Shown: positions 1,557 through 49,292, numbered from the stretch's first letter. The stretch is 64,000 nt of DNA from an uncultured virus (IMG/VR IMGVR_UViG_3300025770_000015) (IMGVR_UViG_3300025770_000015), one strand, 5' to 3'. The notes: generated by a model from the letters alone, not told the origin. Numbers and translations are program-made.

Positions 1557-1621
1557 TAATAGTTTATTTATCTCTTCTCATAAGTGATCTCTTTAACCTT
1601 AACTACAATGGAGAAACCATT
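1557..1621 (+). promoter_or_regulatory. Conserved promoter/RBS module of the MRRSA-leader family
   Basis: TAATAGTTTATTTAT...TAAGTGATCTC.TTAACC...AATGGAGAA; close copies upstream of genes starting at 23782, 46544, 47153. Confidence 0.75.
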
Positions 1622-1906
1622 ATGAGAAGATCAGCTTCAGAAATCATTAATGAGCTTGAGATGAGGGTTGCTCGTCTTGAGAAGTCAGCAGGACAAAGGA
1701 TTAACTATCTTGATAATGTTATGGAAGGACTCGAAAGGTATAATAAAATAGAAATTCTTTCTGATTATAATACAAGAGATTTAGGCACTAAAGTCCATGC
1801 TCCACATCCGAATGATGTAAGAAGAGCGATTTCAAGAAATAAAAAAATCATGGTTCACGCTGTGGACGGTAGGACAAGGTTTACATTAAACTGGCGTCAT
1901 TTATAA
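1622..1906 (+). CDS. MRRSA-leader family protein 1 (putative virion cargo)
   Basis: ATG at 1622 after GGAGA RBS; leader MRRSASEIINELEMRVARLEKSA. Confidence 0.8.
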   Translation: MRRSASEIINELEMRVARLEKSAGQRINYLDNVMEGLERYNKIEILSDYNTRDLGTKVHAPHPNDVRRAISRNKKIMVHAVDGRTRFTLNWRHL

Positions 1907-1982
1907 TGGACAGGGCAGGATTTGAACCTGCGTACTCCTAAGAGGTCAGATTTACAGTCTGATGTCTTAGGAGTACCTGTCC
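1907..1982 (-). tRNA. tRNA-Tyr(GTA)-like with abnormal D-arm
   Basis: Acceptor GGACAGG/CCTGTCC, anticodon arm TCAGA-CTGTAAA-TCTGA, T-arm GCAGG-TTCAAAT-CCTGC; D region is the reverse complement of the variable region. Confidence 0.7.
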
Positions 1983-1983
1983 A

Positions 1984-2360
1984 AAGGGCTAGATTTCCTA
2001 TCCCTATAGTAAGTTATGCCCCACGAAAACCACAGGGCAATTTTCGGTCTGCTATGGTAAGCTCGCCCCCCTTAAACGAGTAAGGGTTGAATGAGTCTTA
2101 GGGTAGGGTAGGCTTAGACCCTCCAAGTGCATACTGCGATCAGCGTAGAGCCACAACACTGGCGTTATACCTAGTAATTTTAACGCCCTCTCTTTCAAGA
2201 GGGTGTTAGGAAGTATCAAAATTTGATTATCCCCGCTACGAAGAACATTCGTCATTTACGCCCCTCTAGTTTGCAGATTTCGACCGAGTAGTAAAAGAGG
2301 AACTTCTGTAAGACTAATGCCAGCCAAACTTTTACAGCAGACAAATGATCTTCGCCAATA
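1984..2360 (-). ncRNA. Candidate structured non-coding RNA A
   Basis: Several stems incl. CCCTCTT-GAAA-GAGAGGG; between tRNA genes; no credible ORF; strand inferred from flanking tRNAs. Confidence 0.35.
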
Positions 2361-2364
2361 CAAA

Positions 2365-2439: not shown

Positions 2440-2440
2440 T

Positions 2441-2929: not shown

Positions 2930-2931
2930 AG

Positions 2932-3003
2932 CACACCAAGTAGGATTTGAACCTACGACCTGCGGCTTAGAAGGCCGATGCTCTTCCACTGAGCTATTGG
3001 TGC
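2932..3003 (-). tRNA. tRNA-Arg(TCT)
   Basis: GCACCAA-TAGCTCAGTGGAAGAGC, anticodon loop CTTCTAA, T-arm GTAGG-TTCAAAT-CCTAC. Confidence 0.93.
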
Positions 3004-3389
3004 TAAAAGCTCCGTTTTGCCCTACTTTACGGAACAACAAAGTGGAGACACCTATGAGAAAGGTGAAGGGCGAGTTATTATACAACGAATCTCCTCAAAA
3101 TCTAAACTATTTAGACTTTGGTGCGTTACCTCGACCACCGCCACTAGGGCGACCAGTCGAAGATGGATAGTTAGGGTTTCCCATGACTATACTCCTATTT
3201 CAATGTTGTACTCTTAAGTGTGGTGGAGAAGTTCCTTAGCTTCTTAGGTCTAAGAGTTTGACCTACCTTGTTCTTTCTCAGTTCCTCACGATCAAGGGCT
3301 TTTGTGAGTTTACCGTCCTTGTGTTAGACCCCCCTCTACCCATTCTTTCTTTCATCCAAGGCAAAATAAAAGAAAGTAGAGGGGGGTAA
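3004..3389 (-). ncRNA. Candidate structured non-coding RNA C
   Basis: Many short stems and a possible 3' pseudoknot; lies between the two tRNA-Arg genes. Confidence 0.35.
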
Positions 3390-3461
3390 TACACTAGGTA
3401 GGGATCGAACCTACGACCTACACTTTAGGAAAGTGTTGCTCTTCCACTGAGCTACTAATGT
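3390..3461 (-). tRNA. tRNA-Arg(CCT)
   Basis: ACATTAG/CTAGTGT acceptor, ACACT-TTCCTAA-AGTGT anticodon arm, GTAGG-TTCGATC-CCTAC T-arm. Confidence 0.9.
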
Positions 3462-3558
3462 AAAGTTAAGTTCATATCGAGATTTCAAAGATCTTTGAAG
3501 CGTTCAACAACACTCACAAAGGTATTATACAAAAAAGACCCTCAAAGGAACAACAAAA

Positions 3559-5054: not shown

Positions 5055-5074
5055 TGTTTTCTCCTTTCAAGAGA

Positions 5075-12061: not shown

Positions 12062-12106
12062 AAAATAGACCCTTTCTCTTGTATATGATGTTTCATAAAT
12101 AAACTA

Positions 12107-13213
12107 TTAAAGAAGCCTCTGTAAGAAATCTGTATCAGATCCTATCCCAGCTAAGGGAGAAGTGATGATTTCCTTAACTGGCACAACGCCTTCTAAGTTA
12201 TACCTCAACAGGGGTATAACCAACGGAAAGTGAACAAACCAATCCGCCTGTATGGATAAACTCATACTCGCAGTAAAAAAATAATCATCTGCATTGTCGT
12301 CATACACTTCTTCACCCTCTCCCCCCAAACTCACATCCGAAACCTCAAGACCAAGATTGGCGAGCTTAGGTCGTAAACTAGCCCAGAGCCACACCACTGT
12401 TCGGTCTGCTATGTCTGCTTGTGAATGAACATCTCTAGTCACTAAGTCAATATCAACGCTTATATCCCAACGACCACCATACTCGTGATATGTTGCTTGC
12501 TGGGCATCCTCAACCACAATGATCTGTTCATCACCATCTTCTACCCAACGACCAACTGCGATCAAACAACCTGGAATGATTTCTCTATACACTTGGTCTG
12601 GCCAAACGATATAAGGGGAGGGTGCGTCAGCCTCTTTATATGTATATTGTGCTCTCAGACTTAACCCTCTAGGAACTTCTTCGGTCAAAGTCACATTCGT
12701 ACCATTACGAACATACTCTGTAGACTCCAATAATCTACCCGATGGATCTTCAATCAACCTAAAAGAGTTCGCCAAAGGTTCTTCAAGTAGTTCTATCGTT
12801 GTGGGGTCAGTGAAGATCAAGATATCTTCTTTTTGGTACTGATAAACATCTTGTGTGATGACATAGTTATTGGGATCTGTTCCAGGTGCTTTGGTGAACT
12901 TGAAATGATAAACCCCTTTTCTCGGAGTCTCAAAAGTAGACTCTCTCACCCACTCTATTGAGGTACTTTTCTTACCTAAAACACTCGCTAGAACAACTGA
13001 CCCTTTTACGGTAGCGATAAAGTTATCAGGGCTTAAAACTACATTACTAGCACCACCTGTTTTGACCACCATGCCAAATTGAGGTCGCTCCTCAAAGGCA
13101 TATTTACCTTGTATATTTTTCGCCAGTGTTGTGTATCGAGGATGGTCTTGCCAATACTCTTGTAACTCTTTGATCATTCTATCTCTAACAGCTAATGTTA
13201 AATGGTGAAACAT
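12107..13213 (-). CDS. Putative virion structural protein (tail completion-like)
   Basis: 368 aa upstream of sheath; late-type motif; function inferred from context only. Confidence 0.5.
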   Translation of the reverse strand: MFHHLTLAVRDRMIKELQEYWQDHPRYTTLAKNIQGKYAFEERPQFGMVVKTGGASNVVLSPDNFIATVKGSVVLASVLGKKSTSIEWVRESTFETPRKGVYHFKFTKAPGTDPNNYVITQDVYQYQKEDILIFTDPTTIELLEEPLANSFRLIEDPSGRLLESTEYVRNGTNVTLTEEVPRGLSLRAQYTYKEADAPSPYIVWPDQVYREIIPGCLIAVGRWVEDGDEQIIVVEDAQQATYHEYGGRWDISVDIDLVTRDVHSQADIADRTVVWLWASLRPKLANLGLEVSDVSLGGEGEEVYDDNADDYFFTASMSLSIQADWFVHFPLVIPLLRYNLEGVVPVKEIITSPLAGIGSDTDFLQRLL

Positions 13214-15917: not shown

Positions 15918-15922
15918 CGATT

Positions 15923-23404: not shown

Positions 23405-23782
23405 CTATCTCTTGAATCTAGCTGGTGTCCATGCGTTATGTGATCTTCGACCTCTGCGAGATGCTTGCTTGGTGTAGATCATTCCAAGACCATCGGTGAA
23501 GTCACCCTTTTCAAACTTCACATCATGCTTTTGAGCGAGAGCTTTGACCTGTTTCTCGACCTTTTTATTGTCCATTGATGACATGAGGAAAGTAATAACC
23601 CCATCTTCAAAATCAATGTCCTCAATACCAAAGGTGTCCTCAAGATCACGCCTAATCTGACGAACATTTACATTACCTGCTAAGATGATGTGTCCTGCAA
23701 CTTTGCGTGTTGCTGAGGTACGCTCAAGACGAGCAATGCGTCTTTCAAGGTTGTTAATGATTTGTGATGCTGATCTTCTCAT
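23405..23782 (-). CDS. MRRSA-leader family protein 2
   Basis: Leader MRRSASQIINNLERRIARLERTS; conserved upstream module 23783-23844. Confidence 0.8.
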   Translation of the reverse strand: MRRSASQIINNLERRIARLERTSATRKVAGHIILAGNVNVRQIRRDLEDTFGIEDIDFEDGVITFLMSSMDNKKVEKQVKALAQKHDVKFEKGDFTDGLGMIYTKQASRRGRRSHNAWTPARFKR

Positions 23783-24121
23783 AGGAGTTCTCCATTTAAG
23801 TTAAGGTTAGAGATCACTTAAGATCATTTATAAATGATCTATTAAAAACATTGAGGGTCATGTCCTCTCTGCATAGCGAGGGAGGTCAAATCCAAAAGAC
23901 CCCTTTATCGAACCAGCACTAAGACCTAATCGGTTAAAAATCAAACCCAAAGACGATGTGTGGGTCAGAGATTTTAGGGTAATAATCAGTGAGAAAATGG
24001 CTGTTTTATGATCTGTGTGTGGGTCAAAGAGATGGAGCATAGTCTAAACCTAACTTTTTTTTGCTAGGGGATACTGTCAATGGTATATACCCAACCTTAA
24101 ATAAACCAAAGGATCTTAAAA

Positions 24122-25909: not shown

Positions 25910-25918
25910 AAGAACCTA

Positions 25919-26371: not shown

Positions 26372-26420
26372 AAATCAGTCCTTTCATATATGAAGTCAGA
26401 TAATAACCCCTTATATGATC

Positions 26421-26648
26421 CTAGCCCTCTTTATGCCTCTCTACCTCTCGTTGAAGATACCAAATAGCTTTATTCAAGTCCTCAATAGAACTCTCACCAG
26501 GTTTCTTTCCCGCTCTTAAGATATATTTGATCGCTGAACCAAGCGAAAAATTGAGGTTATATGCCTCGATCACAGATATCGCTTCCATCCCCTTTGCTTG
26601 GTAATGGTCGGGATGGTCAATCTTCTCGTACTTTTGCTCTTTACTCAT
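26421..26648 (-). CDS. DUF3310 family protein
   Basis: HPDHY, AIKYILRAGKK, EDLNKAIWYL. Confidence 0.88.
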   Translation of the reverse strand: MSKEQKYEKIDHPDHYQAKGMEAISVIEAYNLNFSLGSAIKYILRAGKKPGESSIEDLNKAIWYLQREVERHKEG

Positions 26649-26709
26649 AGTATATTCTTTAACTTTTCTTAGCTTGTTTATAATGACACTATACTAAAGG
26701 AGGCTCAAT

Positions 26710-35424: not shown

Positions 35425-38400
35425 TAACAAGAGTTGCATCTGCGGAAAGTTCTCCACCTGTACGATTTACAGCACAAAACTTAAAGCTAGTTGCATTAAC
35501 GATAGTGTGTGCATAAACCTCAACATTCTTGTCTTGGCAAGTAGCGAGGATTACGCTTGTGGATAATGCAGAGGTATTATTCACAAGAAAATCGATTGAG
35601 TGTGCGTCATCTGCAATTGCAGTGTCTATTGTTGCTGTCACTTGGAAAGACTTAGTGTTGGTAGCAAGTAATGGGTTGTTACTTGCTCCTTCATCTCCTG
35701 TAAGCCCTGTAGTTTTAGTGATTGTAAGACTACCCGAATCAATGGTGACTTCTTGATCGTCCTCAATAGTCATAGCAAGAGTTCGAGCGTTTTCTACTGA
35801 CGCTCCACCATCGGCTGATCCACCTGTCTTAAACTCAATCGCACCACCTGTGGCATTACCTGTGGAAGCACCACCACTGATCGTAAGAGTAGTACCTGCG
35901 GTATTATCTGCACCAAGAGCAGAACCACCACGAAGCGTTCCGAGATCCACAGTAGAAAGATCTCCATCAGGAACAGCATAAGTATCCGCTGGCTCTGCTA
36001 CAGATGCTCTACCATGAAAAACCTTAAAGACACCACCCTTACCACCTGCGGTGTCTGCGGTTTCATAAACCATACCCATTAAGTAGTCGGCAGAGTTTGT
36101 ATCTCCATACGCACCCACAAAACCAACATCTCTATCATCAGCCGTACTCTGATAACCAAGATAAACAGTTGGGTCTTTAAAGAGCAAGGAGGTCGAGACC
36201 GCACTGCTATTTTGAATCACACCTGAGACAGTTAAGTTCCCAACTATAGCTGTTGTAGCTTCGGTTATGGTAAGAGTAGCGTTATCTGTATTAACGATGG
36301 TCGCACCACTACCGAAGTCTAAAGTATTACCTGTTACTGTAAGATCTCCTGCTGTGATTACAGTCGAACCTGTGTGTCCACCAAGAGTCATTGAGTGGGT
36401 ATTTCCTACAGAAGCACCGAGAATAGTTCCGTTTGAGAAGTCAATGTCTCCAGCGAAGGTTGCTTTCTTTAAATGAGTTAGAGTGAGGACAGGAGCAAGA
36501 ACCGCACCATTCGCACCCGCTGTCTGAAGAACAAGATCACCACCATCGCCTGTACCAACACCTCTACCAGAAGATAAGGTAAGAGTAGCTCCATCTGTGT
36601 TCCCTGCGGTTTGAGTTGGAGCTTTAATGGTCGTTGCAGTCGAAGTACCCACCCCTAATACGATGTCATTCCCACCAACAGTAAGATCACCCGCAACAGT
36701 AAGCATTTCATCAGTGTCCATAGTAAGAGTAGTAGTACCCTCACTATTTTGAATGATGTTATTGTTGATTCTGAGATCACCCGAAAGAATCGTAGTGGTT
36801 GCAGTTAGAGTGGTTGAAAACCCTGCTCCTGCAAAGGTAATGACAGTATCTGCATTCGCATTTTTAATATCATTTCCACCAACTTGAAGATCAGCAGAGG
36901 TCTTAACAATGTCTTCTGTTAAGAGTAGTGTACCTGCTGTAGTTGAGTCGATGATTGAACCTTCAGTTAGGTTGATCTTACCACCAAGTACCGTAACATC
37001 ACCTGCAAAGGAGGCATTTGATGAAGTTGCAGTGTCATGTGAGGTTAAAGTGAGAACACCTTGATAACTAGCATCGCCTGTCTTCTGACCACTGATGGTA
37101 AGAGTACGAGTACCCTCATCTGATCCTGTGATCGTCCAACTATCACCATTCGCAGTACCCAAAGAGGACTGAATGTTGATCACTGCATTTGTAGCGTCTG
37201 CCGCTTTGACTGTAAGATCACCACCATTAATATTAGCATCACCTGCAATAGTGAGGACACCTGCTTCATCAATAGAAGCGATTTCTGCGTCTAATCCATT
37301 CTGGAAAGTGAACTTATTATCGCCATCGGCATTCTCGTCCACCCTAAAGAGAATGTCCCCATCTGAGTGGAACGCTAATGTCGGACTTGCAATTTTACCA
37401 TTGGTAAGAGTGAGATTACCAATGGTAGTGCCTGTAAAGAAAGAGGAAGCTACTGTGGTGTCAGTGATACCACCTACTGATACTACTGCACCCCCAGTGC
37501 TAACAGTAAAGTTTTGTGTTCCAATCGCAGTACCCACAGAGAAGTTGGTGTTTGAATGAAATTTACCACCATCTACAGTGAATGAATCTGCCGAATCATC
37601 CCACTTCAAGTAAGCGTCAGTGCCATTATCTCCACCCTTTACAAACAAGAGACTGACATCTGTGTTCGCTCCACCTTTCGCCACATCAGTGCGATCAGAA
37701 TTGAAGATGATAGCGTTTCCGTCAGTGGGTGCTGACTTGACCTTAAGCGTATCGTCTAAGGTAGAAATACCTGTGACACCCAAAGTGGTCGTGATAACAG
37801 TCGCACCCGTATTTGATACGGTGAAGACAGAAGCATTAACATCAATACCACCATTAAGGTCTGCAAGACCACTGACTCCAAGAGTACCTGTAATGTCGAG
37901 GTCATAAGCAGGAGCGGCAGTCTTGATACCAACTCGATCATTACTCGCTTGAGCAAAGATCAAGTTAGCATTGCCATCACCCTCAACCCTAAAGTCGATG
38001 TCCACACCACCTTGATTGAACACAACCTCTTCTGTGGTATTTGTAGTGACGAAGGTGAGGTAAGATTGAGTACCGTTAGCCTTAACATCTCCTTTGACTT
38101 CAAGAGATGTCGCTTCATTATCAGTGAGGTTAATATCGAGGTCAGAACCTGCGATACTTGAAACACCACTGATCGCACCTGCTAGCGTGATACCACCACC
38201 AGAAGCGTCCAAAGAATCAACTGTAGTCGCACCGAAGTCACAAACACCTGTTGTTGTTAAAGTGTCATTACCAAAGGTAATCGCATCAGTACCAGAGGCG
38301 ATTGATCCATTATTGATAGTGAAGTTAGCAATCGTGTGTCCCACGCTATCGGTGGTGATCACACCTGTATTACTTACTGAGAAGTTTGAAGCTCCATCAA

Positions 38401-40153: not shown

Positions 40154-40218
40154 TTTAATCTCCTATGGGTAGGTGTGTTTCATATAAAGGTTAAGTATAA
40201 AAAGACTATTAATCTTAA

Positions 40219-43200
40219 TCAGCAGACTAATACTCCGTAGTCTTCTTCAGCATAGATAACCACAAGATTAAGGAAGGTGTCATTTAAGCCATCTCCATTA
40301 AAATCAAGTGCGAAATCATTATTGACATTAAAGGCATCAGACACGAGTCCATAGTCAATAGTCTCAATATATCGACCTTTAATTATTAGATCTGCGGTTT
40401 CATTTGCTGATAAAGCAGATAAATAATGGGTTGTTAAAACAGGGATTTCTCCATTAGAGGTTCCAGTATCAACAGTGGAAGCCGTACCTAAAGTTGTTGG
40501 CACATATTTATTCTGATCATCTCCCGCATCAGTCGTGTACTTTAACACCTGCCCATTTGTAGGGTCAGTGGTAGAAATATCTGAGATTTCTTTTGCCTCA
40601 GTATTTCCTATTTCTTGAGTCACAAATGCGGTGGTAGCGATCTGTGTAGTGTCCGTATTGGTGACAGCGGTAGGTGCTGTGGGTGTTCCAGTCAGTGCGG
40701 TATCTGCAAGTTGTAATTGGACAAATGCAGTAGTGGCGACTAAAGTTGTATCGTTAGCTTTCGCTTGAGTCGTGGCTTCCACCCCATCTGCGAAAGTCTG
40801 AGCACCATCTAAAAGAGCAATGTTTGCAGTATCCGATAAATCCTCGGAATCTATTCTTTGGTTTACAAACTGACCTGCACCATTATGGACTAATAAATGC
40901 TTGGTTGTTTCATCCCCATCCAAAGTGACATTTGATAATGCCCCAACAGAAAACGAAGTTAAAGACACAGTAGCTTCTATGGTGTCTTCCGCATCATTAT
41001 TTAAGAAAGTAATACCTGTATGTGTTCCTCCAGCTAATGCTGTACCTACGGTGTCTCTAGCTTGTTCATCAGTATAATCCGCAATGTTCGCCACTGCTTC
41101 AAATTGATCATTGACCGCTGACCATGCGAGTACATGACCATCAGTGTCATTAAGATTCGTTAAATCTACATCTGATAACCCACCAACAGAAGTCGATCCT
41201 ATTTCTGTCTCTACATAAGCGGTGGTCGCAATACTTGTAGAATTATTTCCTTGAGCTTGAGTGGGGGCAGTGGGGTTTCCCGTTAGGGCTGGTGAAGCAA
41301 GAAACGCAATATCAGCAACATTAGAAAGATCAGCAGAAGAAATAAGTCGGTTGACATATTGGCCTGCACCATTCTCAACCAAGAAATGCTTATCCGCACC
41401 TCCCGCAATAGTCACATTATTAAGATCGTTTAGCCCCGCATTGGAGGCTAAGAAATCACCTGTATTTGAAGTAGAAGCAGTTCCAAGACCTAGAGTTGTT
41501 CTTACTGCACCTGCATCAGCATCGTCTATAATTGAGCGACCAAAAGCAGAAATACTCGTTGTAGAAAAAGCATCTGCACCTGTAGCGTAAATGAGCTTAT
41601 TTGCACCTGTAGCGACACCTGCAAGAGCCGTAAGAGTAGCATCTAAACCTTGATATGTGCCCCCAAGATTAAGAGTTACAAGATCAGCATCAATTTGAGC
41701 ATCCACATAAGCAGTAGTGGCGACTTTTGTTGAATTATTTGAAGCACCTTGTGTGGTTGCAGTTGCCGTAGCAACTGTCAAATCAACGGCTCCTGTAAAT
41801 ACTTTATCTCCACTTAAAGTCTGATCTCCACCTAATAAAGAAATATTTCCTGTGTTAGTTAGGTCAGTGGAGGCGAGACTAACCGTTGCTGTGATCGTTC
41901 CGTCATTTGCACCTTCAGTGTCATCATACGCAAAGGTGAGATGAGTATTACCTGCGTTATTCGCAGTAAACATTGTGCCAACGAGATCTTGTACTTCTTC
42001 ATCTGTAAGTTGTGTGTTGGTGTCATCCCCAACAACAAGATTTAATGCTCCATTGAACCTAAGAACTTTACCTTCTGCTTTATTTGTAGTGTCAACATCC
42101 GACAAGATGTTGATCGAACCTAGACTCGTAAGATCTGCACCCGAAACAGCGGGTAATCCATTTGCTCCGAGTTCTACAACATCCCCATTTGCGACACCTA
42201 CATTTTTTTGAGAGGCTGTACCCAAGCTGAGGGTTGTGACCTCAGTCTGAACATAAGCTGTGGTAGCGATTTGGGTTGTATTTACACCTTGAATAGCAGT
42301 TGGAGCAGTAGGTGTGCCTGTAAGATCGGGGTCACTTAGTCTTGCGACAGTATTATCGACAACAAAGTTTAGTTTCCCACCTGCATCGTCATAAGAAACA
42401 GTAATATCTGTTTCAGTATTACCTGAAACCATACCTCCAACGAGATCTTGCACTTGCTCGTCAGTTAGCTGAGTATTTGTGTCTGTCTCATCGGCTTGAG
42501 TTATTTCTCCTGCAACAACTTTAAGAATCTTTCCATTAACTAATGCCCCACCTAAAGCGACATCATTTAAGTCATCAATACTTGAATTGGAAGCGAGGAA
42601 GTCACCAGTTGCGTTTGCAGAGGCAGTACCGAGATTTGAGGCAGTGATATTCCCTGTGAGTTCTAAAGCCCCTGTAATCTTGGTATCCCCTACGACATCT
42701 AGGGGTACAGTAGGGGCGTTTTGAAAGATACCGACTCGATCCGTCCCACCATCGGAGAAGATTGCGTGAGTTTTTGTACCTGTCTCTACTCTGAAGTCGA
42801 TTCCATTACCTGCTTCATTAATGACTACATCATTGTGGAAATCTACTTTAAAGTTGAAAGCAGAAGGTTTGTTGAAGACAATATTTTCAATATTGTCGGT
42901 CGTATTAAAAGTAAGATAACTATTATTTCCCTCTTTGATAGAGAAAGCAGAAGCAGTGTTATCTGTCATAGAAACTGAGACAGTAGTTCCATCAGCAGAG
43001 ATGGTATCTAATGCGACATCACCTACATTCGTGAGGTTAAAATCCCCCAAAGACACATGACCTGTGAAAGTTACAGTACCATCTCTAAGAATAATGTCTG
43101 CGTTATTGGAGAGATCGGCAGAAGAGACTAACTGGTTTACATATTGACCAGCACCATTTCTCACTAAAAAATGAAACTCTGCTCCTCCTGCAATGGTGAC

Positions 43201-43704
43201 ATCCCCTAAATCTGTAAGATTTGTAGCCCCACCACCACCACCTTCTCCTGGAACCCATTCGCCAGCATTATTATCCCAAACAATCGTATTTCCATCAGCT
43301 AGACCCGCTAGATTCACATCAGAAATAAGACTTAGATTTAGGGTAGCATTTTTCCATTTCCCTGTGGCTAAATCATACTGCAAAAACTGATCGTCAGCTA
43401 AACCTGCAATCGTTACATCAGCTAACGCAGATAATTGTGCGTTTCCTGCAAGAACTGCATTACCTACAACATCTTGCACAAATTCTGTGGTTGCAATTCG
43501 ATCTGAACTTTCAGCAAGGGCGATTCCCCCTTTTATGTTAAGAGTCCAATCGCCATTTGCCCCCAAAAGATAACTTTCTTGAGCAACTGAAGGACCAGGA
43601 ACGAGTCCGTCAGTCCCTGCTTTAACTCCATTTGTGCCTTCAAAAGCGGTGAGTGTGATAGATGCACCTGCTGTGGTGGTAGAACCTGATCCAAATGAAC
43701 TCAT
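40219..43704 (-). CDS. Tail fibre protein
   Basis: Repeated LTGxPTAPT...IATTA[YF]V and LxDLxDV modules; 1161 aa. Confidence 0.85.
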   Translation of the reverse strand: MSSFGSGSTTTAGASITLTAFEGTNGVKAGTDGLVPGPSVAQESYLLGANGDWTLNIKGGIALAESSDRIATTEFVQDVVGNAVLAGNAQLSALADVTIAGLADDQFLQYDLATGKWKNATLNLSLISDVNLAGLADGNTIVWDNNAGEWVPGEGGGGGATNLTDLGDVTIAGGAEFHFLVRNGAGQYVNQLVSSADLSNNADIILRDGTVTFTGHVSLGDFNLTNVGDVALDTISADGTTVSVSMTDNTASAFSIKEGNNSYLTFNTTDNIENIVFNKPSAFNFKVDFHNDVVINEAGNGIDFRVETGTKTHAIFSDGGTDRVGIFQNAPTVPLDVVGDTKITGALELTGNITASNLGTASANATGDFLASNSSIDDLNDVALGGALVNGKILKVVAGEITQADETDTNTQLTDEQVQDLVGGMVSGNTETDITVSYDDAGGKLNFVVDNTVARLSDPDLTGTPTAPTAIQGVNTTQIATTAYVQTEVTTLSLGTASQKNVGVANGDVVELGANGLPAVSGADLTSLGSINILSDVDTTNKAEGKVLRFNGALNLVVGDDTNTQLTDEEVQDLVGTMFTANNAGNTHLTFAYDDTEGANDGTITATVSLASTDLTNTGNISLLGGDQTLSGDKVFTGAVDLTVATATATTQGASNNSTKVATTAYVDAQIDADLVTLNLGGTYQGLDATLTALAGVATGANKLIYATGADAFSTTSISAFGRSIIDDADAGAVRTTLGLGTASTSNTGDFLASNAGLNDLNNVTIAGGADKHFLVENGAGQYVNRLISSADLSNVADIAFLASPALTGNPTAPTQAQGNNSTSIATTAYVETEIGSTSVGGLSDVDLTNLNDTDGHVLAWSAVNDQFEAVANIADYTDEQARDTVGTALAGGTHTGITFLNNDAEDTIEATVSLTSFSVGALSNVTLDGDETTKHLLVHNGAGQFVNQRIDSEDLSDTANIALLDGAQTFADGVEATTQAKANDTTLVATTAFVQLQLADTALTGTPTAPTAVTNTDTTQIATTAFVTQEIGNTEAKEISDISTTDPTNGQVLKYTTDAGDDQNKYVPTTLGTASTVDTGTSNGEIPVLTTHYLSALSANETADLIIKGRYIETIDYGLVSDAFNVNNDFALDFNGDGLNDTFLNLVVIYAEEDYGVLVC

Positions 43705-43795
43705 GGTGAACTCCTTTATTTTTATACCTATTAATGTCGAGGTATAAAAAGAGTATTAAAGGAGATTGCGAATGATCTATTTAAACTATGTACCC

Positions 43796-44668
43796 TTAAA
43801 TCTCTTCAATGACATAGTTAAGTTTAGTTCTAAGTCGCTTACCACTAGATGCGAGATATTGAAACGACTCCTCAGAAGCACCAAGTTGACGAATAATACT
43901 TTTTCGCTCATCTTCATCTAGGTATCCGAACGCTTCAAGAACTTGCTTCTCACTCCACCCTCTCTCCTCATAAAGATACTCATAAGGGTACTGTTTAAGA
44001 GCTTTCTCGATCTCTTCTTCTGCTTCTCCCATAAGATCATTGCGGGCAGACTCTGGTAACTCGTTCAACATATTATTATAGTCAAATACCATTACTTCTG
44101 CACGATCAGAATAAAGACGATTGATCTCTCCATTAACTTCTGGATCCATCCTCGCTTCCCAATAAGCCAGCTCCTCTTCATATGACTCTTTCTTTTCGGT
44201 CAAATCTGCCCTCTCAAGGATTTCGTCATCGTCTAAGTCTTCGATTTGTTCCTCCGCCCATTGAGTAGCCCACATTCCAATATCACCGTAAGGTAGACTC
44301 GCAGTGGTTACAATGATGTCTCTTGCCCAAGGCACTCTTACAACCACTTCTTTAACAGAATGGTTATCGAGCATCTCATCCATGATCTCTTCATTCATCT
44401 GTGTCTTAACATCATCATCCTCATAGATGATGTAATCACTCCAATCAGAAGAAACCAAGATCACATCTTTATGACCTTGAAAGTATTCCCAGACTTGACC
44501 GTTTCTTCTCTCTTTAAGATCAGACCTAGTTTGGGCTTTAGTTTCTCGACTTTCAACTAGAACTTCTAAAGCCCAAGTTATCCATTGAGGTTCTTTCTTA
44601 GATTGCTTTTCAAGTTGGGCAATCCTATTCTCAAGTTTATTAATGATTTCTGATGCTGATTTTCTCAT
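43796..44668 (-). CDS. MRRSA-leader family protein 3 (acidic, 290 aa)
   Basis: Leader MRKSASEIINKLENRIAQLEKQS; AATGGAGAA RBS. Confidence 0.8.
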   Translation of the reverse strand: MRKSASEIINKLENRIAQLEKQSKKEPQWITWALEVLVESRETKAQTRSDLKERRNGQVWEYFQGHKDVILVSSDWSDYIIYEDDDVKTQMNEEIMDEMLDNHSVKEVVVRVPWARDIIVTTASLPYGDIGMWATQWAEEQIEDLDDDEILERADLTEKKESYEEELAYWEARMDPEVNGEINRLYSDRAEVMVFDYNNMLNELPESARNDLMGEAEEEIEKALKQYPYEYLYEERGWSEKQVLEAFGYLDEDERKSIIRQLGASEESFQYLASSGKRLRTKLNYVIEEI

Positions 44669-44695
44669 GATTTTTCTCCATTTGATTAAAATAAA

Positions 44696-45103
44696 TTAGT
44701 ACGCACCCTTGATGCTTTTGATCTCTGATTTGACTTCTTCATGTAGGTCATACCATCGATCAGAGATGGAAGCATAAAAGCGATCCTCTCTCATTGAAAA
44801 TGAAGGCATACTCTCTAATGCTTGCTCCAGCTCTTGCATCGCTTCAAGAACTTTGACTGCACTCTCTCTTACAGATAATTGACGAGCAGTCTTGTTTCCC
44901 TTGTACTCAGGAGTTTTACGATACTCTTTAACGAGTCTTTCGTATTCTTCATTTTGAGACTTGGTGAGATTATCATCGTCTTCAAGTTTTTGCAGGTCAT
45001 CAAGTCTCGACCTGTCTTTTTTAGACATAGTGTGTGCTGATATTTCAAGTTGTGCGATTCTTGATTCAAGATCCCTGAGTACTTCACTTGCTGATTTTCT
45101 CAT
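44696..45103 (-). CDS. MRRSA-leader family protein 4
   Basis: ATG 45103 after GGAGG; leader MRKSASEVLRDLESRIAQLEISA. Confidence 0.8.
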   Translation of the reverse strand: MRKSASEVLRDLESRIAQLEISAHTMSKKDRSRLDDLQKLEDDDNLTKSQNEEYERLVKEYRKTPEYKGNKTARQLSVRESAVKVLEAMQELEQALESMPSFSMREDRFYASISDRWYDLHEEVKSEIKSIKGAY

Positions 45104-45180
45104 AAGAGTCCTCCATTTTTGGCTAGGGTTGCTGAGATTATATAAGTATAATAATAGATAAACTATCAAAGGATTAGCAT

Positions 45181-46155
45181 ATGATAAAGCTACTATGGAG
45201 AACAGATGTCCACATGGGAGATAAAACCCCACGCAGACGCACTGGAAACTGGACGGATGATGTGGTCAACAAGCTCAAGTGGATTGGTGATCTCGCTAAG
45301 GATAAAGAGATTGACGCTGTACTTGATGGTGGAGACTTCTTTGATGTCAAATCACCCACCAAGAATAGCCATAGTTTAGTCCGTAAGGCTTGTGACGCAC
45401 ATGAGGGGTATCCTTGCCCTACTTATGGTCTAGTCGGCAACCACGATGTAAAATATGGCAATATAGACTACCTACCCGAACAACCTCTAGGAGTCCTATT
45501 CTCATCGGGTGTCTTTAAGCAGTTTGGCGATGATGTAGAAATAAACTTTGAAAAAGATGGGGTCAAAGTTCGTGTAGTCGGTGTGCCTTATCATGGTGTC
45601 ATTTATGACTTTGATCGGATCAAGAACATAAAAAAGAAAGACGAGGATTACCTACTAGTCGCTAGCCACCTCCTCGCTCGACAAGGTAAGACTGGATCAA
45701 TGTTTGAGAATGAGGATATAGTTGGATATGACTTCCTTAATGAGAACACAGAAGTAGACGCTTGGTTCTTTGGTCATTGGCACAAAGATCAAGGCATCTC
45801 CACGCTCTTAAATGGAGCAAGGGTTGTCAATGTAGGGTCATTAACAAGAGGTTCTTTACACCTTGATGACTTAGACCGTAGACCTTGTGTGGTAGAGGTT
45901 CAAGCCACCAAAGAGTCGCTTAACTTCATCAGACACGATGTTCCTGTACGAGATGCCAATGAGGTATTCAAGATCGAGGAAACTGTGCGTGAAAAGGAAG
46001 ATAAGCAACGAATGATCGACATTGTAGACAAGATGAAAGCAGTAGCCACATCGGGTTGGTCTGAACTTACTCTTAAAGAGCGTGTAATGCAGACTATGGG
46101 TTCAAATGGAGCTAAGGAAATGGCTATCTCTTATCTTGAACAAGTCGAGGATTAA
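45181..46155 (+). CDS. SbcD/Mre11-like metallophosphoesterase nuclease
   Basis: TDVH, GGDFFD, GNHD, GHWH, NVGSLTR. Confidence 0.85.
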   Translation: MIKLLWRTDVHMGDKTPRRRTGNWTDDVVNKLKWIGDLAKDKEIDAVLDGGDFFDVKSPTKNSHSLVRKACDAHEGYPCPTYGLVGNHDVKYGNIDYLPEQPLGVLFSSGVFKQFGDDVEINFEKDGVKVRVVGVPYHGVIYDFDRIKNIKKKDEDYLLVASHLLARQGKTGSMFENEDIVGYDFLNENTEVDAWFFGHWHKDQGISTLLNGARVVNVGSLTRGSLHLDDLDRRPCVVEVQATKESLNFIRHDVPVRDANEVFKIEETVREKEDKQRMIDIVDKMKAVATSGWSELTLKERVMQTMGSNGAKEMAISYLEQVED

Positions 46156-46682
46156 GATTAAAGACTTTTAAGATAATCTAAAATGTCTTCATCTCTTCTT
46201 AATCCGTTTGGTTGGCCTTGGTCATGGTAGATAATCTCGATTAAGTCGGTTGCGATAAGCACCTGGTCTTTTCTCGGTCTTTCCATAGACATACCAACTA
46301 CATAACTATGATCAATGTCATCACTAGTTGAGAAGTGGTTAAAGATTTCGCCTTTTGACATGAAATAAGTTTTCATTCTGCGACCTCCACCATCTTGACC
46401 GTACTTATCTTTAAATGGTGCGAAGAGGGTAAATTGCCCTTGCCCAAGAGCTTCCCTAGCTGGGTGCTTTCGGCCTGCTTGTCTTTCAAGTCTTGCAATC
46501 CTTGACTCAAGATTACGAATAACTTCGGTTGCTGATCTTCTCATGGTTTTCTCCATTTTGTTTGTGGTTAAAGAGATCACTTATGAGAACCTATAAAAGA
46601 ACTATTAAAACAAGAAATAGATAAAAGTAGGAATAAGGGGTGGGGATGGCTATCTCTTATCTTGAACGAGTCGAGGACTAAG
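46120..46682. repeat. 37-bp direct repeat (46120-46156 and 46646-46682) flanking a leader-family cassette
   Basis: ATGGCTATCTCTTATCTTGAAC[A/G]AGTCGAGGA[T/C]TAAG, 35/37 identical. Confidence 0.9.
46158..46544 (-). CDS. MRRSA-leader family protein 5
   Basis: Leader MRRSATEVIRNLESRIARLERQA; upstream module 46545-46607. Confidence 0.8.
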   Translation of the reverse strand: MRRSATEVIRNLESRIARLERQAGRKHPAREALGQGQFTLFAPFKDKYGQDGGGRRMKTYFMSKGEIFNHFSTSDDIDHSYVVGMSMERPRKDQVLIATDLIEIIYHDQGQPNGLRRDEDILDYLKSL

Positions 46683-46685
46683 TTA

Positions 46686-47153
46686 TTAGGCTTTTGTGAT
46701 GTCATAGTCTGCACGAGCCTTTAGATTGCTCTTTAGGATGCTCTGTAGTTTATTAGCACAAGAGTTATAACTTTGGCTCTCACATCCAGTAGCAACAAAT
46801 ACTTGATAGAGACAACTCCAACAACCACCTTGAAGATTGTCTGATCCGTCATCAAGACCCCAACTGATTTGTAGTTGACCCCCCCCTATATCAACATATG
46901 CGTATAGGCTTGTTCCTCTCTCAATGTCTCCTTCCTCGATTCCTTCTTCAAGACTGGATTTAGCAGACTCAATATCACTGTTAACTTCTGCAATAATCTC
47001 TGCAAAAGTCATGTCGGTGTTTCGATCTCTTGGGTGACCTGTGTACCAACCTGTACTGATCTTTAGACCAGAATGTTTGTTGGCAGTACGACCTTCAAGA
47101 CGAGCAATCCTCATCTGAAGGTTGCGAATAATTTCTGATGCTGATCTTTTCAT
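46686..47153 (-). CDS. MRRSA-leader family protein 6
   Basis: Leader MKRSASEIIRNLQMRIARLEGRTA; upstream module 47154-47216. Confidence 0.8.
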   Translation of the reverse strand: MKRSASEIIRNLQMRIARLEGRTANKHSGLKISTGWYTGHPRDRNTDMTFAEIIAEVNSDIESAKSSLEEGIEEGDIERGTSLYAYVDIGGGQLQISWGLDDGSDNLQGGCWSCLYQVFVATGCESQSYNSCANKLQSILKSNLKARADYDITKA

Positions 47154-47213
47154 GGTTTTTCTCCATTTTGTTAAGGTTAATGAGATCACTTAAGATCAAT
47201 TATAAATAAACTA

Positions 47214-49292
47214 TTAAAATCTATACCTCAACCTAGAGTACCTAAGACCACTAGACGAGTTTCCTACACAAATCGCTACTGCGTCCTTATCTCCAATCAG
47301 CACTGCCTTATCCTTCGCTCTCGTGACAGCGGTGTAGAGCAAAGAGCGTTGTAAGAGGTTTGAACTATGTTCGGTGGTCATAGGCATAATGATGGTGTCG
47401 TACTCAAGACCTTGGCTCTTATGAACAGTCGTAGCATAAGCGAGTCTCAATAGCTTCCTTACTTGATCAGAAGGGATGTCTACGATTTGATCTTTTACAC
47501 CTTTGATGAGTACGCTCACGCTTGTTTTATCAATCGACCTAATACGACCTATATCACCATTATAAACATTGAGGTCATACTCATTCTTGGTGATCATAAC
47601 TCGATCACCTACTCGGATTGAATCTTTACCTACCCGAATGAAAGCACCTCCTATATCGGGGTTCAAAGCAGATCTAAGCTCTCTGTTAAGATTAGTAACA
47701 CCCACTTTGCCATGATGAGTAGGACTAACCACATGGAAATCTATTTGATCCATGTGAAGCTCTTTACACCGTCCCACAATTTCATCGAGAATGTCTTGTG
47801 AGGTATAACGATCAATGAACTGATAATCTTTATTGTGTTGTGGCACTTCACCTGCATGGATCTTGTGAGCGGCAATTGTCACCCCACTCCCCTCTCCTTG
47901 CCTAAAGATTTCTGTAAGGTGTTCTCTCGGTACTGCGTTCGACTCAATAAGTTCCGAAAGAACAAACCCTGCACCAACAGGTGGAAGCTGTGCTATATCA
48001 CCTACCATGATGACTCGACACTTGGGTGAGATGCCTTTCATCACACGCCACATGAGGTGTAAGTCAATCATAGAGGATTCGTCTATAATGACAACTGACT
48101 CTGGTCGAGGATTCTGAGGATTATGTCTCCATAGTTCTCGACTTGGGTCATTGCTATTGCCAATACCTTTAACTCCACTTTCTTCATCTTTCTTAACCCC
48201 TTCATAATCAGACTTGTCCTTCTTATCCTCTGAGGGCAATCCTGCACCGAACGCTCTATGGACTGTGAAAGCGTCCATATTGGTTAATGCACTAGCTCGT
48301 TTAGCGGCTATTCCTGTGGGGGCGATGAGTAAGATACTTTCTTTACGATCACGCAAGATTTTACAGAGCGTATTAAGGATAGTCGTCTTACCTGTTCCTG
48401 GTAATCCTGTCACGATTGAAAAAGGCTCTATAAGACCCTGTTGGATTGCTTTGAGTTGTGTATTGGTCAATGGGTAGCGTGAATATGCTTTAATGTCATC
48501 AATACTTATTGATTGAAGCATACTATTCACTCGGAGAGGAGATTTAATTTCTTCGGCAACAGCTACCTCCATTTTATGATAAGAAGGCAAATAAAGGGCA
48601 ATAGAGGAGTCTTGTGATATCTTATCTACCACAATGCGAGTCGGCTTCGCCTCTTTCATCGACTTGATGACTTGACCTATCTCTTTCGGGTTCGTCAAGC
48701 CTGTGAGGATAGCAGTATCTTTGAATACCGTATTTGTGTCTAAATAACAATGACCTTGATACACACCTTGAAGCATAGACCAAAAGATAGAGGCTTCAAC
48801 TCGACCTTCATTTTCTGGGTCAAAGTCCTTTTTAAGAAGCGTCTTAGCAATTTCATCAGCACCTTGAAAAGAGACACCTTTATAAACCAACGACCAAGGG
48901 TTTTTAGCAATAGAACTCGGAGATATTTGAACATCATTCCAAATAGAGTTTATGATGTTCAAAGGCACTCCTGCTTCAGACAGACTTGAGATAACCTCGA
49001 TGGACTCTTGCATAAGAGGGTCAGACCAATCTGCCCAACTGTAGAGAGCCGACCCTTTAAGATACTTAGGGTTAATCGGATTACGAACTATATCAAGGTT
49101 CTTCTTCCCATTACGCTTGTCGAGGACTTCCTTACCTTGAAAGGTAAATACTTGACCTTTTGAAACAGGGCCTGCAATCTTACCTTTGACCACGATAGGC
49201 TTTGTATCGGCCTCAGAAGCTACGATACACCTTAGAATATAATAAGGTGGGTTGGCAAAAATCTGCCCCAACACTTTGGCAACATAAAACAC
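47214..49292 (-). CDS. recD2: RecD2-like SF1B helicase
   Basis: GLPGTGKTT, IIDESSM, GDIAQLPPVG, YATTVHKSQG, LLYTAVTRAK; N-terminal NPW/ADEIA region. Confidence 0.88.
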   Translation of the reverse strand: MFYVAKVLGQIFANPPYYILRCIVASEADTKPIVVKGKIAGPVSKGQVFTFQGKEVLDKRNGKKNLDIVRNPINPKYLKGSALYSWADWSDPLMQESIEVISSLSEAGVPLNIINSIWNDVQISPSSIAKNPWSLVYKGVSFQGADEIAKTLLKKDFDPENEGRVEASIFWSMLQGVYQGHCYLDTNTVFKDTAILTGLTNPKEIGQVIKSMKEAKPTRIVVDKISQDSSIALYLPSYHKMEVAVAEEIKSPLRVNSMLQSISIDDIKAYSRYPLTNTQLKAIQQGLIEPFSIVTGLPGTGKTTILNTLCKILRDRKESILLIAPTGIAAKRASALTNMDAFTVHRAFGAGLPSEDKKDKSDYEGVKKDEESGVKGIGNSNDPSRELWRHNPQNPRPESVVIIDESSMIDLHLMWRVMKGISPKCRVIMVGDIAQLPPVGAGFVLSELIESNAVPREHLTEIFRQGEGSGVTIAAHKIHAGEVPQHNKDYQFIDRYTSQDILDEIVGRCKELHMDQIDFHVVSPTHHGKVGVTNLNRELRSALNPDIGGAFIRVGKDSIRVGDRVMITKNEYDLNVYNGDIGRIRSIDKTSVSVLIKGVKDQIVDIPSDQVRKLLRLAYATTVHKSQGLEYDTIIMPMTTEHSSNLLQRSLLYTAVTRAKDKAVLIGDKDAVAICVGNSSSGLRYSRLRYRF

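Follow-up and report, generated by a model that had tools for sequence, protein, structure and literature searches.

Short terminal peptides that direct unrelated cargo into an HK97-fold shell are found as encapsulin cargo-loading peptides, which mostly sit at the C-terminus, bind directly to the shell protein, and stay uncut; their shell is a bacterial compartment, not a virion. Among phages, the capsid targeting sequence (CTS) of T4 is described in the available text of PMC3012670 and PMC9026906 as bipartite, with N-terminal residues that target and C-terminal residues that govern processing, and the T4 internal proteins are described there as non-conserved among relatives, which is read as an arms race. 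According to the parts of PMC10052503 and PMC9026906 at hand, proteases of the gp21 family cut after Glu, the consensus sites being L/I-x-E in T4 and S/A/G-x-E in phiKZ and SPN3US, and SPN3US has N-terminal propeptides of 20 and 24 residues. Here, a stretch of 64,000 nucleotides (hereafter, the window) from the uncultured virus IMGVR_UViG_3300025770_000015 was analysed, in which six genes share an N-terminal leader. They encode members of a very large family of putatively late, small proteins, and their leader may be a head-targeting and processing tag comparable to the T4 CTS.

Leader genes of the window

As claimed in the initial annotation, open reading frames starting at 1622 (plus strand) and at 23782, 44668, 45103, 46544, and 47153 (minus strand) all begin with a common leader of 22–24 aa (protein lengths 94, 125, 290, 135, 128, and 155 aa, respectively). 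A 24-aa leader profile searched against the six frames of the window matched these six (E 7.5e-16 to 1.5e-14), and no seventh leader was found by this search (next best match E 0.69). All-against-all BLASTP and phmmer comparisons of residues 23 to the end of the six window proteins yielded nothing significant, the best match (E 0.001, six-sequence database, composition correction off) joining two acidic coiled-coil-like stretches; the bodies are thus unrelated, and the full divergence stated for them was borne out.

The 94-aa protein (1622..1906, plus strand) has a basic body (pI 10.2) without homolog in G003, a collinear complete relative, and the same holds for the body of the 128-aa protein (46158..46544, minus strand). 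In the region of this 128-aa gene, positions 46380-46622 are covered by one contig of 243 nt from a marine RNA library. The 125-aa protein (23405..23782, minus strand) also has a basic body, part of which shares 83% identity with a G003 leader protein of 271 aa. A very acidic body (pI 4.4) characterizes the 290-aa protein (43796..44668, minus strand), whose syntenic G003 ortholog is 68% identical and whose body recurs elsewhere in second place in a chain of two bodies (P0294). The C-terminal part of the 135-aa protein (44696..45103, minus strand) is a relative of P0012, as well as of the body at the C-terminus of a HAD-like/leader fusion that this phage encodes at another site. For the 155-aa protein (46686..47153, minus strand; syntenic G003 ortholog 54% identical), the AF2 model places a low-confidence lone leader helix at residues 5-23, a linker at 24-31, and a compact alpha/beta body at 32-152; this body model was the one confident model out of five, and no fold match to it was found among known folds. 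Four of the window's leader copies lie just upstream of tail-fibre genes.

Promoter and RBS module

The DNA module described for these genes was confirmed: TAAGTGATCTC is exact upstream of the genes at 1622, 23782, 46544, and 47153, the module is diverged before 45103, and only the RBS precedes 44668. Upstream of the 1622 gene (1557..1621, plus strand), a promoter-like motif (TAATAGTTTATTTAT) is followed by the TAAGTGATCTC..TAACC box and the RBS AATGGAGAA, and full modules also occupy 23783..23844, 46545..46607, and 47154..47216 (all minus strand) upstream of the genes at 23782, 46544, and 47153. The diverged module at 45104..45197 (minus strand; GATAGTTTATCTAT ... TATATAATCTC ... AATGGAGGA), upstream of the 45103 gene, comprises two promoter-like motifs (GATAGTTTATCTAT, and ATAGTAGCTTTAT at 45196), a degenerate box, and the RBS AATGGAGGA. 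At 44669..44695 (minus strand), the RBS alone (AATGGAGAA) lies 24 nt past the stop codon of the 45103 gene, and the 44668 and 45103 genes are probably co-transcribed.

Exact copies of TAATAG-N4-TTTAT number seven in the window. The same promoter-like motif, on the minus strand, also precedes a 143-aa gene and the tail-sheath operon (12095..12109), a 1582-aa fibre-like tail protein (40197..40211), and a conserved 178-aa gene (63643..63657). The earlier statement that this promoter precedes sheath and fibre genes therefore stands in part: the motif heads the sheath operon, but the next gene is the 143-aa one directly upstream of sheath, and it precedes the 1582-aa fibre-like protein, whereas the 1161-aa tail fibre annotated by PHROG (40219-43704) lacks a separate copy. 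The form [AT]TAG-N4-TTTAT occurred 55 times in G003 (6.3 expected), with 41 of the 55 located at most 130 nt upstream of a same-strand start, and 27 times in a 102-kb piece of the present phage (3.8 expected), and it heads sheath, fibre-like, portal, head-core, and capsid-protein operons. Because the motif is common to tail, portal, and head operons, the late expression claimed for the leader genes is supported by association only. Between 43500 and 47400, no sigma-70-like promoter was matched (8.1 expected), and no stem-loop terminator was found beside the modules. In viral contigs, a leader ORF came next after 103 of 124 module matches, and the promoter/RBS/leader block accounted for 24 of the 28 multi-copy short repeats in G003.

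Size and diversity of the leader family

The scan of genome and relatives with a leader profile that had been advised was carried out in public data at E<=1e-3 and matched 1,091 cluster representatives; the six window genes are a large undercount of the leader family. Among the best 150 of these 1,091, the leader started at residue 1 in 146, and the bodies, 44 to 396 aa in length, fell into 118 unrelated BLASTP components with at most five members. They therefore do not align as one ordinary paralog family, the outcome that had been named as refuting. A Pfam family was assigned to 2 of the 150 bodies, which otherwise match no known family, and body pI had two modes, with 55 of 140 bodies acidic and 53 basic. 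Neither these family searches nor the fold search with the one modelled body gave direct support to the injected anti-defence effectors suggested in the initial annotation. A few payloads resemble DNA- or nucleotide-related domains (WGR; HAD-like fusion). Full leaders are also found inside two conserved larger proteins of the present phage, namely a WGR-domain protein of 579 aa that neighbours the portal and the 254-aa HAD-like fusion. The family occurs in huge marine myophages that form one clade (genomes ~300-375 kb) and are distant kin of Bacillus phage G, and one complete relative of 375.7 kb carries 31 leader copies.

Selection on the leader and its modular design

Residues 1-14 of the leader (M-R-R-S-A-S-E-I-I-x-x-L-E-x) occur once per protein and normally at the N-terminus, whereas residues 15-24 (R-Φ-A-R-L-E-[KR]-[QS]-[SA]-S), which run into a polar linker and then an unrelated body, are also found alone at junctions joining two or three bodies. 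Selection acts on the leader peptide and not on DNA alone, since Ser6 uses AGT and TCA about equally (18 and 17 among 39 distinct leaders). In the same 39 leaders, Arg15 is written with 5 codons and Arg18 with at least 8, the information at the three codon positions is 1.40, 1.55, and 0.85, and conservation falls sharply at codon 24, from 1.4-1.55 bits to ~0.1 bit per position. Past L-E, the next 12 residues show an excess of S, A, Q, K, T, and P, and this polar linker composition, together with the helix/linker/body layout predicted by AF2, indicates a detachable leader. The leader helix is amphipathic (hydrophobic moment 1.5-1.7), and its second half follows a plain a/d heptad pattern (I9, L12, I16, L19) whose string, in the literature containing it, also opens the c-Jun zipper; by this likeness and the heptad, the leader could be a mere oligomerisation or docking helix. 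A Sec or Tat signal peptide was ruled out (mean hydropathy -0.77, no hydrophobic core, amphipathic helix).

Internal A-R-L-E-[KR..] junctions numbered 27 in 26 of 235 retrieved leader proteins, against 0.47 expected. In their logo, R occupies position -2 in 24 of 27 and V/I/L/F position -1, followed by [KR], [QS], [SA], and S, and no conservation was seen upstream of R-Φ in these 27 junctions. One upstream body is fused to five different downstream bodies, and payloads of the 290-aa, 155-aa, and 135-aa types known from the window are likewise found in downstream position. The leader thus looks bipartite, with positions 15-24 resembling a processing site.

Payload turnover and a sister lineage

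Core genes of the present phage and G003 are collinear and 75-99% identical. The bodies of 7 of the 13 leader genes of the present phage have no homolog in G003, and three retained leader orthologs are only 54-68% identical. Payloads compared at syntenic loci, a check proposed with the initial annotation, thus turn over between these collinear genomes, a pattern that resembles that of the T4 internal proteins. Taken with the module and profile counts above, it upholds the portable promoter/RBS/leader unit on unrelated, exchangeable payloads. Leader genes lie in the head region (one directly past the portal gene and four past the capsid gene cluster) and are also scattered across the replication and tail regions.

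In cultured relatives, a leader of either type was not found, Tunturi_5 and phage G being negative. A sister lineage (LR745208) has a different common leader on 10 N-termini and at 1 internal site: the tag of the present lineage (type A) reads M-R-R-S-A-S-E-I-I-x-x-L-E-x-R-I-A-R-L-E, and that of the sister lineage (type B) reads L-R-S-K-L-I-R-L-A-H-E-N-P-A-L-R-P-H-L-L-P-L-L-K-E-A. The capsid protein and portal of LR745208 are 89% and 72% identical to those of the present phage, the protease and scaffold-position protein only 42%.

Prohead protease and candidate cleavage site

A gene between the portal and capsid genes matches PHROG 18299 ('head maturation protease', E 4.9e-14). Among 48,161 chains, the best structural match of its model was T4 gp21 (5jbl_A; Z 6.0, rmsd 3.7, 129 residues) and herpesvirus assemblin ranked 4th (1vzv, Z 5.5); the model is mediocre (mean pLDDT 60.4) and the Z scores are modest. 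The present phage encodes a T4-gp21-like prohead protease.

The context of Glu20 (P4 A, P3 R or Q, P2 L) fits neither the T4 nor the phiKZ/SPN3US consensus, and L/I-x-E occurs nowhere in the leader. The nearly invariant A5-S6-E7 is the sole A-x-E fit in the leader, while the junction element A-R-L-E does not fit. In T4 and phiKZ, the same motif marks structural substrates, whereas in the present phage capsid protein, portal, and protease all lack the leader motif. Outside leaders, the sole look-alike is R-V-A-R-L-A-D, which forms a conserved scaffold helix of the scaffold-position protein; since the lineage with the other leader has this helix too (as A-L-R-R-L-A-E), leader type and look-alike do not co-vary.

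Interpretation

We give about an even chance to the leader being, by analogy with the T4 CTS, a head-targeting and processing tag on exchangeable payloads. The amphipathic, zipper-like leader would dock the precursor into the assembling prohead core, and the gp21-like protease would cut at positions 15-24, at or just past the invariant Glu20, freeing the body as an internal head protein that would leave the capsid with the DNA. Where bodies are chained, positions 15-24 at each junction would allow one targeting signal to deliver several of them. The genes are self-contained cassettes, in which the late promoter and RBS (~65 bp) and the leader codons (66 bp) form a homologous stretch of roughly 130 bp where payloads are gained, lost, swapped, and fused. 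We observed the leader and its module, peptide-level selection, the size and diversity of the family, payload turnover, internal junctions, a promoter motif common to other operons, and an encoded protease, and we infer docking, cleavage, virion residence, ejection, and payload role. The half-leader at internal junctions, the gp21-like protease, and the flexible linker past the leader lend indirect support to head packaging with removal by the prohead protease. Points against this reading are the off-consensus Glu20, the motif's absence from capsid protein, portal, and protease, the scattered genes, the zipper-like helix, and the number of 31 tagged genes.

Several of these points would suit an uncut leader that serves as a short zipper-like helix plugging varied proteins onto one common hub, be it an appendage of the virion, a decoration site on the capsid, or a scaffold of phage or host origin inside the cell, with internal copies as linkers adding a second docking point. 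The clear a/d heptad and amphipathicity, the c-Jun string, the Glu20 motif away from published prohead-protease consensus sites, the full leaders inside the 579-aa and 254-aa proteins, and the four copies just upstream of tail-fibre genes favour such a helix. We nevertheless consider it unlikely: internal copies retain positions 15-24 and small polar residues but not the whole helix, which docking alone hardly explains, conservation extends beyond the helix into [KR]-[QS]-[SA]-S, and a flexible linker separates leader and body. Somewhat less probable again is that the leader marks late effectors for another common intracellular fate (localisation, timed degradation or activation by a protease, or assembly into a common complex) and never enters the capsid. 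The spread of leader genes over the whole genome, their heterogeneous payload chemistry, and the few payloads of WGR or HAD-like kind would agree with this, but the promoter motif is common to structural operons, some copies cluster beside portal and capsid genes, the leader is no Sec or Tat signal, and the closest precedents for a short common N-terminal peptide on unrelated phage proteins, as far as PMC3012670 and PMC9026906 are available, are head-targeting propeptides.

It is improbable that the 5' block is kept solely for strong late transcription and translation and as homology for shuffling, with a functionless peptide. In its favour are the conserved ~130 bp that variable ORFs have at their 5' end, the block's share of the G003 repeats, the body turnover at block sites, and the homologous shuffling via promoter cassettes that the accessible part of PMC2839356 documents in T4-type phages. 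Yet synonymous sites are free while residues are fixed, including switches between Ser and between Arg codon families, and proteins retain the half-leader in frame at internal sites, where promoter and RBS are unneeded; a cassette role may hold for the DNA alongside a peptide function but cannot be the whole story. An ordinary paralog family with bodies diverged past recognition has next to no probability in our estimate: a few small body families exist, but the 118 components, the bimodal body pI, the abrupt conservation drop at codon 24, and the varying combinations in which bodies are joined speak against it.

Extending the head-tag reading to both lineages, we tentatively propose, as possible but somewhat doubtful, that related huge-phage lineages each have their own non-crossing two-part tag for head loading and processing, matched to their own diverged protease and scaffold, and that >1,000 fast-evolving payload families would be packaged and ejected, some as polyproteins cut at half-leader junctions. 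If true, the tag would let the full arsenal that uncultured giant phages inject be reached in a single computational step.

Comparison with known systems

The PeSL cassettes of T4-type phages, as set out in the available part of PMC2839356, are ~100-bp promoter blocks that end in an RBS and start codon and flank ORFans; where they sit, close relatives differ by insertion, deletion, and replacement. The present block likewise lies on the 5' side of ORFans and coincides with gene gain, loss, or replacement. PeSLs carry an early sigma-70-like promoter and a stem-loop terminator and end at the ATG, whereas the present block has a late-type motif and no stem-loop and continues 66 nt into coding sequence under peptide-level selection. 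Closer in virion biology are phiKZ and SPN3US, giant phages with many internal head proteins that a gp21-like protease (gp175/gp245) cuts after Glu and with propeptides that can hold several cleavage sites (available text of PMC10052503 and PMC9026906). In that text, these propeptides are described by their length and A-x-E site, not as one common module, in contrast to the one conserved leader on unrelated bodies here, and A-x-E fits A5-S6-E7 but not the junction-recurring Glu20 site.

The likeness to the T4 CTS (IPI, IPII, IPIII, Alt), as described in the accessible parts of PMC3012670 and PMC9026906, is one of features: a short N-terminal, bipartite peptide on otherwise unrelated small proteins, poorly conserved among related phages in both systems, with a gp21-type protease in the same genome. 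The T4 CTS has 10 residues against 22-24 in the present leader, and the lineage considered here is G-like, not T4-like. Unlike in T4, payloads are chained via half-leaders and a conserved promoter/RBS block travels with the leader. Three IPs and Alt are among the tagged internal proteins of T4 in the text available from PMC9026906, compared with ~31 tagged genes per genome and >1,000 payload clusters in the present system.

Leader genes and their upstream module

The six open reading frames (ORFs) proposed in the initial annotation were present at their positions in the window, starting at 1622 (plus strand) and at 23782, 44668, 45103, 46544 and 47153 (all minus strand), with products of 94, 125, 290, 135, 128 and 155 aa. 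All six N-termini fitted the pattern M[RK][RK]SA[ST][EQ][IV][IL]xxL[EQ]xR[IV]A[RQ]LE (type-A leader), and a profile built from residues 1-24, scanned against the six frames of the window, gave six matches at E ≤ 1.5e-14, the next lying at E 0.69. Past residue 22, the remainders of the proteins (bodies, or payloads) showed no similarity to one another in all-against-all BLASTP and phmmer searches, confirming the described divergence. An ordinary paralog family was rejected because these bodies do not align; a Sec or Tat signal was likewise rejected as the identity of the leader. One block (TAATAG-N4-TTTAT, then TAAGTGATCTC..TAACC, then AATGGAGAA) precedes four of the genes, a degenerate copy precedes the 45103 gene, and the 44668 gene has the ribosome-binding site (RBS) alone, 24 nt past the preceding stop codon, as had been described.

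None of the six proteins belonged to a PHROG family, and neither window 43700-47300 (blastn) nor the 128-aa protein (tblastn) had a match in the “phages” collection. One marine metatranscriptome contained 6% of the sampled words, and a 243-nt contig from an RNA library corresponded to 46380-46622 with one mismatch, extending from the module through the leader into the beginning of the 128-aa gene; this contig fixes no transcript start and does not distinguish source RNA from carried-over DNA.

Among 39 distinct leaders, residues were constant and codons variable: Ser6 was encoded by AGT in 18 and TCA in 17, and five codons were used for Arg15 and at least eight for Arg18. For the leader, information at the three codon positions was 1.40, 1.55, and 0.85; beyond codon 24, in the body, it was about 0.1. 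Since residues are fixed while codons vary, the leader peptide is functional; the DNA block may additionally serve expression and recombination. As a side observation, three tRNA genes of the window, all on the minus strand (Glu(ttc), 1164-1236; Arg(tct), 2931-3003; Arg(cct), 3389-3462), read GAA, AGA, and AGG, codons that match leader usage (AGA for Arg2 in 34/39 and Arg3 in 35/39, GAA for Glu7 in 36/39, AGG or AGA for Arg15 in 30/39).

Source phage and relatives

The source of the window is a huge contractile-tailed phage. The window encodes a 1597-aa sheath and two fibre-like proteins (1161 and 1582 aa), and is rich in replication and nucleotide-metabolism genes. Its closest record in the phage collection was the uncultured phage LR745208 (485 kb), with Tunturiibacter phage Tunturi_5 and Bacillus phage G as distant relatives. 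Window 18726-64000 coincided, at 100% identity, with one end of IMG/VR contig G001 (83 kb), through which a further 38 kb of the genome became available; the portal, protease, scaffold-position, and capsid genes are in this added part. A CheckV-complete genome of 375.7 kb (G003) was collinear with the window’s phage, core proteins being 75-99% identical.

Further features were recorded in these genomes. Two paralogous proteins of 465 and 469 aa (window 15923-17320 and 31482-32891; 31% identity across their whole length) have C-terminal regions weakly resembling gamma-glutamyl cyclotransferase, and each adjoins a protein of about 835 aa, the two neighbours being mutually unalignable. Homing endonuclease genes were found at window 27738-28841 and G003 47474-48385, and a LAGLIDADG gene lies directly 3' of the 292-aa capsid gene in both G003 and G001.

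Scale and diversity of the leader family

A homolog search from a single sequence reached only 7 close relatives. The module pattern was found in 118 viral-contig stretches; 103 of its 124 matches led into an RBS, an ATG, and the leader, two stood before other ORFs, and the 19 without an RBS are chance matches. In an exhaustive search of 1.84 billion cluster representatives, a profile of 35 leaders matched 1,091 proteins under a cutoff of E ≤ 1e-3, of which 123 also passed E ≤ 1e-10. The leader match began at residue 1 in 146 of the best 150 proteins; of the remaining four, three had short upstream extensions, and the fourth also carried a leader at residue 1. These 150 proteins measured 44-396 aa (median 132), their bodies formed 118 BLASTP components, and just two contained a Pfam family (WGR, OB fold). 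A second search of a word-indexed set of 5.8 billion yielded 755 scored matches among 8,000 candidates, with a Pfam domain in one of the 120 matches listed and sources including Tara Oceans. Nothing exceeded the threshold when 22 proteins were searched against Pfam, and three of 30 further leader proteins matched PHROGs, all function-unknown families or the WGR part.

Leader copies numbered 31 in G003, 12 in a 227-kb fragment (G002), 12 in G001, and 13 in the 102-kb piece of the window’s phage. Diverged leader-like N-termini were also seen on three G003 proteins (67345-67938, 211013-211531, 341201-341938), with examples such as ...L-N-L-E-R-R-V-A-D-L-E... and ...L-R-I-A-R-L-E-R-L-A...; because of these look-alikes, the family is broader than the profile captures. 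The strings MRRSASE and RRSASEII had no match in the literature searched, and a concept search for jumbo-phage hypervariable internal proteins with a conserved N-terminus found nothing relevant.

Candidate promoter motif and other intergenic elements

The motif [AT]TAG-N4-TTTAT occurred 55 times in G003 (6.3 expected) and 27 times in the 102-kb piece (3.8 expected); 41 of the 55 G003 copies were followed within 130 nt by a start on the same strand, the usual distance being 45-60 nt. Its reported placement before sheath and fibre genes held for the gene of the 1582-aa fibre-like protein and failed for the sheath gene itself, where it stands before the preceding gene. It was also located upstream of the genes preceding the portal and capsid genes, of the first gene in the protease-containing head-core operon, and of a baseplate gene and an amidase. 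No sigma-70-like promoter was found in the leader cluster (window 43500-47400), against 8.1 ± 2.9 in shuffled sequence. We read the motif, by association only, as a late or structural promoter.

Two other elements were noted. One, with the core GTAACCCCTTATC, occurs at window 5668(-), 5710(+), 14440(-), and 52267(+), the first two forming a divergent pair, and in G003 at 58250, 279117, and 336227; it may be another promoter class. The other is a promoter/RBS-like element of LR745208 (CGATTTCGCTAAAAAGT ... CCGATAGGGTATTGAGGA) with about 29 copies, each ending at a start codon, found over 1.6-41 kb and scattered elsewhere, with the highest density towards one extremity of the genome; the copies probably form an array of early-gene cassettes.

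Payload turnover

The 13 leader genes of the window’s phage were compared with G003, and six had a body homolog there: three clear orthologs (54%, 60%, and 68% identity), one match of 83% identity over part of its length, a WGR protein (76.5%), and, through an indirect link, the body of a HAD-like fusion. The other seven aligned to G003 through the leader alone; they comprise 1622, 46544, a gene that immediately follows the portal gene, and four genes located after the capsid gene cluster. Conservation of the flanking core genes was far higher. This turnover is cassette gain, loss, and replacement, as is likewise reported for PeSL cassettes of T4-type phages (PMC2839356).

Internal junctions and chained payloads

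Internal copies of A-R-L-E-[KR...] numbered 27 in 26 of 235 retrieved leader proteins, compared to 0.47 expected from shuffles, in a set biased to high scorers, which favours double matches. Across the 27 copies, R occupied position -2 in 24 and V, I, L, or F position -1, no conservation was seen upstream of -2, and [KR], [QS], [SA], and S came after A-R-L-E; the junction element equals leader positions 15-24. Junctions separate two bodies, or three in the retrieved protein P0278, and a single upstream body was found across such junctions with five different bodies downstream. The second bead was the 155-aa family body in P0007, the window’s 290-aa body in P0294, and the 135-aa type in P0012; that of a 237-aa G003 protein with such a junction is a stand-alone PHROG family.

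Full internal leaders were carried by two conserved larger proteins of the window’s phage, with no module upstream of the internal Met. The WGR protein (573-579 aa), encoded beside the portal gene (G001 35469-37208, outside the window; G003 78106-79827), consists of a repeat-containing N-terminal half, the leader at about 303-328, and a C-terminal WGR domain, and the full length of the 579-aa form is kept in G003. The HAD-like fusion, a 254-aa ORF (G001 25911-26675, outside the window), joins an N-terminal phosphatase-type domain (DxDGT start), the leader, and a body like that of the window's 45103 gene.

Judged from its residues, the junction unit, which is conserved across the junction, with an invariant terminal Glu and then small polar residues, looks like a processing site. 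If the leader were instead a retained docking helix, retention of the whole helix would be expected, but the junctions keep positions 15-24. In the 12 residues past L-E, S, A, Q, K, T, and P were enriched and hydrophobics depleted. The best AF2 model of the 155-aa protein (pLDDT 82.5; other four models 37-51) showed a low-confidence helix at 5-23, a linker at 24-31, and a compact alpha/beta body, for which Foldseek returned no PDB or BFVD match (best E 0.014 and 0.045, respectively). For the 290-aa protein, ESM Atlas yielded no usable result.

A second leader in the sister lineage

LR745208 contained no type-A leader. De novo repeat and shared-N-terminus searches recovered a type-B leader there (L-R-S-K-L-I-R-L-A-H-E-N-P-A-L-R-P-H-L-L-P-L-L-K-E-A) at ten N-termini (loci L146-L170; for instance, 398171-398575(-) and 351838-352536(+)), with a further copy inside a 594-aa frame. 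One of these genes sits between the scaffold-position gene and the gene preceding the capsid gene. The two lineages share 89% identity in the capsid protein and 72% in the portal, but just 42% in the protease and the scaffold-position protein; this single contrast would fit a tag adapted to the inner assembly machinery. Both leader types were absent from Tunturi_5 and phage G, and the de novo search, which yielded 27 proteins for G003 and 11 for LR745208, found no shared-N-terminus families in phage G. One weak type-B look-alike occurred in G003. Both leader types end in L-x-[KR]-[QE]-[AS]-[GAS], to which we give no weight. A swap of leader type within one ortholog was considered and rejected, as the 594-aa LR745208 protein is not orthologous to the WGR protein.

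Head protease and possible cleavage sites

A 481-aa protein of the head operon (G001 15351-16796, minus strand) matched the PHROG “head maturation protease”. Its model was mediocre (mean pLDDT 60.4); compared with 48,161 chains, the top match was T4 gp21 (5jbl_A; Z 6.0, rmsd 3.7, 129 residues), and Varicella-zoster protease ranked fourth (Z 5.5). According to PMC10052503 and PMC9026906, gp21-like proteases cut after Glu, the consensus being L/I-x-E for T4 and S/A/G-x-E for phiKZ and SPN3US, and SPN3US propeptides measure 20 and 24 residues. Neither consensus is matched at the leader’s Glu20 (A-R-L-E); A5-S6-E7 agrees with A-x-E. The leader motif was not found in the capsid protein, portal, or protease. 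For the leader against the protease catalytic region (1-300) and the scaffold-position protein (95-335), the predicted binding score was 0.02 (mark, 0.32), which counts neither for nor against binding. The sole non-leader match to a relaxed motif in the 102 kb, R-V-A-R-L-A-D in the scaffold-position protein, was dropped as specific evidence for a head-core link, since A-L-R-R-L-A-E occupies the corresponding place in the type-B lineage.

Implications and comparison with known systems

If the tag loads the head, a 24-residue profile would pick out the injected repertoire of an uncultured ocean giant-phage clade, comprising more than 1,000 payload clusters, almost all without a known family, which would be leading candidates for functions in counter-defence and in taking over the host during the first minute. 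The tag would then also be a modular device for putting foreign proteins into very large capsids, and the junction element could let several be loaded at once. Two tags in lineages whose capsid proteins are nearly identical would be a natural experiment on the co-evolution of a targeting signal with its receptor or protease. Even if loading is wrong, a strongly selected peptide on more than 1,000 unrelated proteins would indicate a common giant-phage hub.

Of the known systems, the T4 capsid targeting sequence comes closest. PMC3012670 and PMC9026906 describe it as a short N-terminal propeptide in two parts, borne by varied and poorly conserved internal proteins that purify together with the scaffold and are freed by gp21. 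The leader system agrees with it on every testable point except the cleavage consensus, and differs in its scale, chained payloads, and travelling promoter block; because of this disagreement and these differences, it is not filed here as a member of that family. Taking the analysis as a whole, we rate the chances as evenly balanced that the leader would be a loading-and-processing tag resembling the T4 capsid targeting sequence in kind.
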